This document shows, in pieces, positions 52,021 through 53,050 of a stretch of 64,000 bases of DNA. The notes under the pieces are model-generated. The model worked only from the letters and a program-made list of their open reading frames with translations. It searched no databases and was not told where the DNA came from. The position numbers were made by a program, and so were the translations under genes. Position 1 is the first letter of the stretch. Every line of letters begins with the position of its first letter. The DNA comes from Escherichia coli. Its GTDB lineage: Bacteria > Pseudomonadota > Gammaproteobacteria > Enterobacterales > Enterobacteriaceae. The DNA lies in assembly GCF_017348835.2 (NCBI RefSeq), contig NZ_CP071375.1, one strand, 5' to 3'.

Positions 52021-52518
52021 CTACATCTGATATTTTTTATCTCTTAAAGATTCATAAATCCGTTGACAAGTCACTCCTGCGATGTAGCGTTTGTCAGCAA
52101 TTTCAGCATAAAGCTGAGCTTCTGCTGCAATATCTCCGAGCATGTTGGTGAGCATTCCTTCGGCGGCTTTGGTTGTTTTGCCTCTGACGGCAGCGGCAAG
52201 ATTTGCGGTATGCTGCGCTGCGTCAAGGCGTATGGCATATTTTGTTGCTTCGGCACGCAGCTGGTTAACACTATCAGACAGATCAGCAGCCCTGGCAGAA
52301 ATTTCAGCGGCTTTCTGTTGTGCATCTTTAACAGCCTCATCACGGGATATACTTCGCCCCTGTTCAATTATTCGAGCAGCAAATTGGACATTTACCTCTT
52401 GAGATAATTCGGCAGCATCACGCTCCGCCCATTTTTTTTGCCATCCTCTGTCGCTCCAGACATTACCTACGACAAATCCTACCAACACGAGCAAAATCAC
52501 CGTGAATATCTGATTCAC
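52021..52518 (-). CDS. rzpQ: Inner-membrane spanin (Rz-like)
   Basis: 165-aa ORF with N-terminal TM helix and coiled-coil body, downstream of the lysozyme. Confidence 0.8.
52071..52325 (-). CDS. rzoQ: Outer-membrane lipoprotein spanin (Rz1-like) embedded in the +1 frame of rzpQ; start approximate
   Basis: Embedded ORF with lipobox-like LTSC and Pro-rich tail. Confidence 0.45.
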
Positions 52519-53050
52519 TGTTCTATCCCCCAGCAGGTTAATGCACTCTCCTGGTCACGACGAATAACCTGACCGTAACAATTATTTGAACGAATGCGGC
52601 AATCACGTCCACCGTCCTTTATCCACCAGCGAATCGCCTCGCATGCGCCTTTACGATCACCGGCATTAAGCCGCTTATAAAACGTCGACGGAAAACACTT
52701 ACCAGGGCCAATGTTATATAGGGACAGAATGACGCGATACCGGCTTTCTGTGGCTCGGTCAGTGGAACTTTTATATTGCGCTCCACCCATGCCAGCGCCT
52801 TATCCCGCTCAATGGCGTTAACCTGGGCGCATTTTTCCTTCGACAGTTTCATTCCCGGAATAACAGGTTTACCGTCCACCATCGTTGCTCCCCGACAGAT
52901 GGTCCATATGCCGGAGCCATCGCGGTATGCAGTGGTGTGATTCCCCTCTTTTTCATCCAGAAACTGATCGAGAATGTCGGGGGCAGGAGCACTGGCGGCA
53001 ATCAGTGCCAGAACAGCAGCCGACAGGCTGTATCTGATTTTTACGTTCAT
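52515..53050 (-). pseudogene. rrrQ: Endolysin (lysozyme) with frameshift
   Basis: N-terminal half in ORF 52619..53050, C-terminal half (YNIGPGKCFPSTFYKRLNAGD...) in ORF 52515..52790, different frame; switch at ccctatataacattggc (about 52725-52740). Confidence 0.7.

Follow-up and report, generated by a model that had tools for sequence, protein, structure and literature searches.

The window, a stretch of 64,000 nucleotides from Escherichia coli contig NZ_CP071375.1, carries the cryptic lambdoid prophage Qin. Position and gene content both identify it: a truncated ydfJ and rspB flank the prophage, which is collinear with what is annotated in K-12 as "cryptic prophage Qin" and includes pinQ, tfaQ, nohA, gnsB, cspI, rzpQ, rrrQ, essQ, cspB, cspF, ydfT and a shortened terminase gene. 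In these strains Qin is defective; it lacks head and tail genes and carries many pseudogenes. All the head and tail genes between the terminase gene and tfaQ are deleted, which is the main reason why no particles can be made. The gene for the large terminase subunit (about 47188-48741, minus strand) is cut to 517 codons and abuts tfaQ (46613-47188, minus strand). The corresponding junction in K-12 involves stfQ, and the end-points of the deletion differ among lineages.

The lysis cassette of the prophage is read from the minus strand (Table 1). It begins with the holin gene essQ, followed by a ydfR-family gene, the lysozyme gene rrrQ, and the spanin genes rzpQ and rzoQ, the second nested inside the first. 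K-12 Qin has the same order (essQ, a ydfR-like gene, rrrQ, rzpQ/rzoQ, cspI), and K-12 rrrQ (b1554) occupies the same locus between truncated ydfJ and rspB.

Table 1. Features of the Qin lysis region and its surroundings (window coordinates).
Feature	Coordinates	Strand	Basis or remark
rzpQ, i-spanin (DUF2514), 165 aa, intact	52021..52518	-	Pfam, K-12 comparison
rzoQ, o-spanin inside rzpQ, 84 aa, lipobox LTSC, intact	52071..52325	-	phrog_11621, Rz-like spanin
rrrQ, frameshifted Qin lysozyme pseudogene (GH24/Phage_lysozyme), predicted SAR endolysin	52515..53050	-	536 bp vs 534 bp intact
Premature TAA stop ending the 143-aa rrrQ product	52619..52621	-	ORF translation
TATATA, site of the 2-bp TA duplication (ancestral TATA)	52715..52720	-	sole difference from RM9088
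Opposite-strand ORF, 86 aa, WP_001306174.1	53164..53424	+	phrog_2572, full length; annotated in relatives
DUF1327/YdfR-family ORF, 183 aa	53372..53923	-	PF07041; phrog_2091, 1-183 of 183, E=1e-110; between holin and lysozyme
essQ, holin of the phage-21 S type (pinholin family), 71 aa, intact	53928..54143	-	PF04971, E=4e-34
Intrinsic-terminator-like hairpin with T run	54597..54616	-	downstream of cspB, upstream of holin; consensus match only
ydfT, Q-like antiterminator, without its first 10 codons and native upstream region	55789..56512	-	homology ends at 56513
IS3-family element, directly upstream of and co-oriented with ydfT	56513..57825	-	orfA 57443-57769, orfB 56556-57443

Around the lysozyme gene the cassette is whole. 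The holin (labelled essD by PGAP) is identical to K-12 EssQ at 71/71 residues, scores 116.7 bits against PF04971 (cut-off 26), and opens with MKSMDK, a dual-start motif (Met1...Met4) also present in the holins of the same Pfam family from phage 21 (S21) and prophage DLP12 (EssD). The spanins have the embedded two-component architecture, rzpQ encoding a DUF2514 protein and rzoQ a lipoprotein in another frame, with RzoQ identical to its K-12 counterpart at 81/84 residues. The original prediction had described the holin, Rz and embedded Rz1 frames as uninterrupted, and all three indeed have the lengths of their K-12 counterparts. NCBIfam profiles gave a sub-threshold endolysin match and no match to the other cassette proteins.

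Between holin and lysozyme the window lineage carries the 183-aa ydfR-family gene together with the opposite-strand ORF, in place of the 103-aa ydfR that K-12 has there. The 3' ends of the two ORFs overlap, and both are kept in the intact phage 2H10. PADLOC matched neither product, and the 86-aa product has no Pfam or NCBIfam match either. PGAP calls the first 112 codons of the longer ORF an "incomplete" YdfR, which looks like an annotation artefact, the ORF being a full-length member of a phage family. Further decay, in the form of an incomplete YdfR and of cold-shock genes situated between Q and the holin, was considered as a description of this region and rejected, given the full-length match to phrog_2091 and the same layout, with cspF, cspB and cspI, in phage 2H10. 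The cspF gene itself (about 55412-55614, plus strand) is a pseudogene both in the lineage discussed below and in strain RM9088: its frame is lost near the C-terminus and runs past the normal stop. It is marked as frameshifted and incomplete by PGAP in relatives; K-12 and phage 2H10 have it intact.

The lesion lies in rrrQ. Read from the ATG at 53050, frame 0 gives MNVKIRY...IASFCPY, then continues as ITLALVSV... and ends after 143 residues, 111 of them native and 32 out of frame, the frame changing after Tyr111. The rest of the lysozyme, ...YNIGPGKCFPSTFYKRL...WGIEQ*, is found in a different frame from the 5' part of the gene, which bears out the earlier reading of a lysozyme split between two frames. 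Alignment to the intact 534-bp allele of RM9088 reveals a single difference along the entire gene, TATA to TATATA at gene positions 331-336, and deletion of one TA in silico regains a 177-aa ORF that reads ...CPYNIGPGK...; the 2-bp insertion proposed in the original prediction is thus confirmed as the only indel and the only change. The proposed membership in lysozyme family 24 also holds, since the repaired protein matches the whole of PF00959 (Phage_lysozyme; glycoside hydrolase family 24, T4-type) at 86.4 bits against a Pfam cut-off of 22.3 bits. The 143-aa product reaches 44 bits and covers positions 2-75 of the 125 in the profile, and the allele in the window does not encode a complete catalytic domain in a single frame.

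What kind of enzyme did the intact gene encode? The nearest solved structures include the SAR endolysin R21 of phage 21 (3hde, 3hdf) and RrrD of DLP12 (4zpu). R21 is homologous to RrrQ (E about 4e-16), and the catalytic E-X8-D-X5-T motif described in PMC9239132 is found in RrrQ as EGNHTTAYRDGSGIWT, with E35, D44 and T50 at the same alignment positions as in R21 (3hde). A weakly hydrophobic segment of RrrQ falls where R21 has its SAR domain: residues 7-24 (YSLSAAVLALIAASAPAP) contain A, G, S or T at 10/18 positions and have a mean Kyte-Doolittle hydropathy of 1.43, in keeping with the weakly hydrophobic, Ala/Gly/Ser/Thr-rich N-terminal stretch that is the signature of SAR domains (PMC9239132). 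The similarity of RrrQ to R21 and to DLP12 RrrD is distant, and its SAR type is a prediction from sequence; the segment could alternatively be a cleavable signal peptide. Closer relatives are found in Stx phages, whose 933W-type lysozyme R is treated as a SAR endolysin (PMC9239132); lysozyme R of the Stx2-converting phage 86 is 91.5% identical to repaired RrrQ. The ancestral cassette most likely combined a pinholin, a SAR endolysin and spanins, the SAR behaviour being suggested by these features and by homology.

Placed on the lysozyme fold through the coverage of the PF00959 profile and the alignment to R21 (3hde), the segment lost from RrrQ is the last third of the enzyme. The truncated product would retain the N-terminal SAR-like segment and the E35/D44/T50 triad without the C-terminal third of the fold, and it is most likely inactive, because the last 66 residues, about one third of the fold, are missing. 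The downstream ORF of 91 aa (52790..52515) has no export signal, and this piece, if made, would reside in another compartment than the N-terminal piece.

Comparison with intact relatives places the event in time. K-12 rrrQ is intact at 534 bp, whereas the gene in the window is frameshifted at 536 bp, and K-12 RrrQ is identical to the repaired protein at 166/177 positions. Much closer are the endolysins of phage 2H10 (YP_009909760.1) and PhiR63_1, which share 100% amino acid identity with repaired RrrQ; the 2H10 gene differs from the repaired gene at 1/534 nucleotides, a synonymous change. The layout of phage 2H10 (Q, cspF, cspB, holin, 183-aa ORF, lysozyme, Rz, cspI, gnsB) also matches that of the window, with identities of 68/71 for the holin, 173/183 for the 183-aa ORF and 164/165 for Rz. 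The endolysin genes of 2H10 and PhiR63_1 are intact and reside in complete phage genomes, in contrast to the frameshifted gene of a defective prophage studied here. Judged from these alignments, the inactivation is recent, because nothing else separates the gene from the RM9088 allele and one synonymous base separates it from that of phage 2H10.

Is the allele real? No assembly error is commoner than an indel, and it could be argued that rrrQ is truly intact and the extra TA a product of assembly. This deserves next to no credence. Of the 3,251 complete E. coli genomes matched by a 46-nt probe that spans it, two have the TA insertion: PE164, a pig isolate from China, and F2_81, a pig isolate from Australia, the link to a host being given by these two annotated isolates only. 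In about 3,249 of the 3,251 the site is in frame. PGAP labels rrrQ "lysozyme, frameshifted" in both PE164 (LZG51_RS12710) and F2_81 (CPH39_RS11595), and the gene in the window is identical at every base to these two pseudogenes. An exact-sequence look-up recovered the 143-aa product from NCBI, ENA and Logan data, on 18 contigs of which those listed include 4 NCBI drafts, 5 Logan assemblies, each from a different sequencing run, and 1 ENA metagenome scaffold. GCA_900196605.1 and GCA_020732225.1 are among the carriers. The site is a dinucleotide repeat rather than a homopolymer, and has no Dam or Dcm methylation motif. Sequencing error as the cause of the insertion is ruled out by the occurrence of the identical allele in at least 10 independent datasets, among them separate sequencing runs and a metagenome, which indirectly answers the call for read support in the original prediction.

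All the carrier contigs that were compared contain CCCTATATAACATTGG, and the flanks they share with the window are 99.8-100% identical to it; in two draft assemblies, GCA_019365205.1 and GCA_032490275.1, the identity is 100% along 8,971 bp, a stretch that takes in 76 bp of the IS element described below. The TA allele is genuine, inherited and confined to one small lineage, the single lineage following from flanks that are at least 99.8% identical among carriers. One carrier, the ENA metagenome scaffold (GAIO21-1_SAMN11097975, 18-804), has a left flank that differs from the window. There, a Mom-like gene (PF25680) and a 92-aa DUF1327 ORF lie upstream of the lysozyme, and homology to the window does not begin before locus position 526; either recombination or chimeric assembly of the metagenome scaffold could account for this.

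The change is thus very probably a recent, lineage-specific loss-of-function frameshift in the endolysin gene of Qin. It would have begun with replication slippage on a short repeat, from (TA)2 to (TA)3, with loss of frame after residue 111 and production of the 143-aa protein. The mutation would have arisen once, on an allele otherwise encoding exactly the endolysin sequence of phage 2H10, and would since have been passed on vertically within a small clade.

Alternatively, the sequence might be recoded or might act as a reversible switch, either because tRNA-Tyr, paired to UAU just ahead of a rare AUA codon, makes a +2 hop and pairs again with the overlapping UAU, or because (TA)3 slips back in the DNA. 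The geometry of UAUAUA permits perfect re-pairing, and a hop would regain ...CPYNIG... exactly. Low-level +2 hops are known from the classical frameshifting literature. Even so, such a function is extremely unlikely: the frameshifted form is not conserved, with the site in frame in nearly all of the complete genomes, a contingency locus would need a tract far longer than (TA)3, and the intact phage homologues manage without recoding. Programmed frameshifting at UAUAUA was considered and rejected for this lack of conservation (3,249/3,251 in frame); an arrangement of that kind would be conserved in relatives, and all the phage homologues examined are in frame. There is similarly only the slimmest chance that the (TA)3 allele is leaky or reversible rather than dead, yielding low levels of wild-type RrrQ by hopping or slippage. 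If it were, the lineage would keep a heavily attenuated endolysin beside an intact pinholin and spanins.

The frameshift is not the only damage to this part of the prophage. Homology of ydfT to F2_81 and K-12 stops at 56513, where the IS3-family element begins. K-12 YdfT starts with MNLEALPKYYSPKSPK..., while the window reads ...SPKSPK... at this point and has no ATG. Relative to F2_81 and K-12, the block ydfU-rem-hokD-relBE-ydfV is absent at the site of the element. The same IS3-ydfT junction is found in the draft assemblies L008 and L009. PE164 has the IS at this junction in inverted orientation and in addition lacks 1.3 kb (flxA-ydfW) that the window retains, and F2_81 has no IS at ydfT. 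Carriers of the frameshift can accordingly be divided into those in which ydfT-ydfU is intact (F2_81 and the carriers L007 and L010) and those that also have IS3 (the window, L008, L009 and PE164). Because some carriers have the frameshift without the element, the TA duplication is the older event. Insertion of IS3 and the deletion, which took away the start of the Q antiterminator gene, followed later in the sublineage of the window. The inverted element and the additional loss of flxA-ydfW in PE164 suggest that IS-mediated rearrangements are still ongoing in this lineage. About 52 kb upstream, chromosomal sequence at 4108-4548 holds a 441-bp piece of this IS3-family element that is 100% identical to the PE164 copy.

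What remains is a holin without a lysozyme, which according to the original prediction can still depolarise the membrane but not lyse the cell. The mechanistic part of this claim is plausible for a member of the pinholin family: the S21 pinholin makes nanometre-scale holes that depolarise the membrane while a cytoplasmic endolysin stays inside, and its triggering is lethal (PMC9239132). The implied working state, however, is unsupported. It has to be asked whether the cassette could now serve as a holin-only module, depolarising without lysis for growth arrest or abortive infection, for instance. An intact holin identical to EssQ, of a family whose small holes retain enzymes, speaks for such a role, yet the surroundings of the gene make it highly unlikely. 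Expression of the late operon depends on the Q antiterminator YdfT, whose gene in the window has neither a start codon nor its upstream region. A terminator-like hairpin stands ahead of the holin, with an 8-bp stem containing 5 GC pairs and the tail TTTATTATCT; read-through presumably requires Q, because phage 2H10 shares the layout. A promoter scan returned 7 sites against 9.2 expected from shuffles, which is no enrichment and is uninformative on a promoter for the holin. Qin itself is defective, as described above. In K-12, rrrQ and the Qin holin gene are transcribed, and neither peptidoglycan integrity nor vesicle production changed when rrrQ or essQ was deleted (PMC12287860). For the DLP12 cassette, by contrast, roles in vesicle production and turnover of the cell wall have been reported (PMC12287860; DLP12 background in PMC7918800), and its genes, unlike their Qin paralogues, did affect these assays (PMC12287860).

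The frameshift may also reach beyond rrrQ. In the intact arrangement the rrrQ stop overlaps the GTG start of rzpQ (GTGA, in the context caGTGAat), and translation of the frameshifted gene ends about 100 nt before the normal stop. Because ribosomes now end that much earlier than the overlap, the frameshift is expected to remove translational coupling between rrrQ and the spanin genes. Polarity on the spanin genes is possible; rzpQ has a purine-rich upstream stretch of its own.

Was the loss of rrrQ selected? SAR endolysins can bring about slow lysis without a holin (PMC9239132), and one that is released spontaneously could lyse the cell, so that a leaky defective prophage might be safer without an endolysin. 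The transcripts of the Qin lysis genes in K-12 rise under enrofloxacin (PMC12287860), and reviews argue that deleterious genes tend to be lost from prophages (PMC6379469). Such an origin is nevertheless unlikely, since the lesion is limited to a tiny clade (about 3,249 of the 3,251 complete genomes are in frame), the pinholin, lethal once triggered, remains intact, deletion of rrrQ in K-12 is without phenotype (PMC12287860), and one event cannot demonstrate selection. The simplest reading would be that a prophage gene is decaying where selection is weak or absent, and we infer that selection on rrrQ is absent. Against strict neutrality, the slow holin-independent lysis caused by SAR endolysins (PMC9239132) means that the loss could be mildly advantageous.

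This is ordinary pseudogenisation in a decaying prophage. The families are known throughout (a GH24 lysozyme, a Qin prophage gene and a pinholin-type cassette), and two RefSeq genomes already have the lesion annotated as a frameshifted pseudogene. Its significance is small, that of another event that can be placed in time as a defective prophage decays, and the current understanding of holin-endolysin systems is unchanged by it. The sister genomes let the order of the decay events be read, from the endolysin frameshift to the loss, mediated by IS3, of the start of the antiterminator gene and of the relBE-hokD region, and the TA allele is usable as a lineage marker for a small clade of E. coli.
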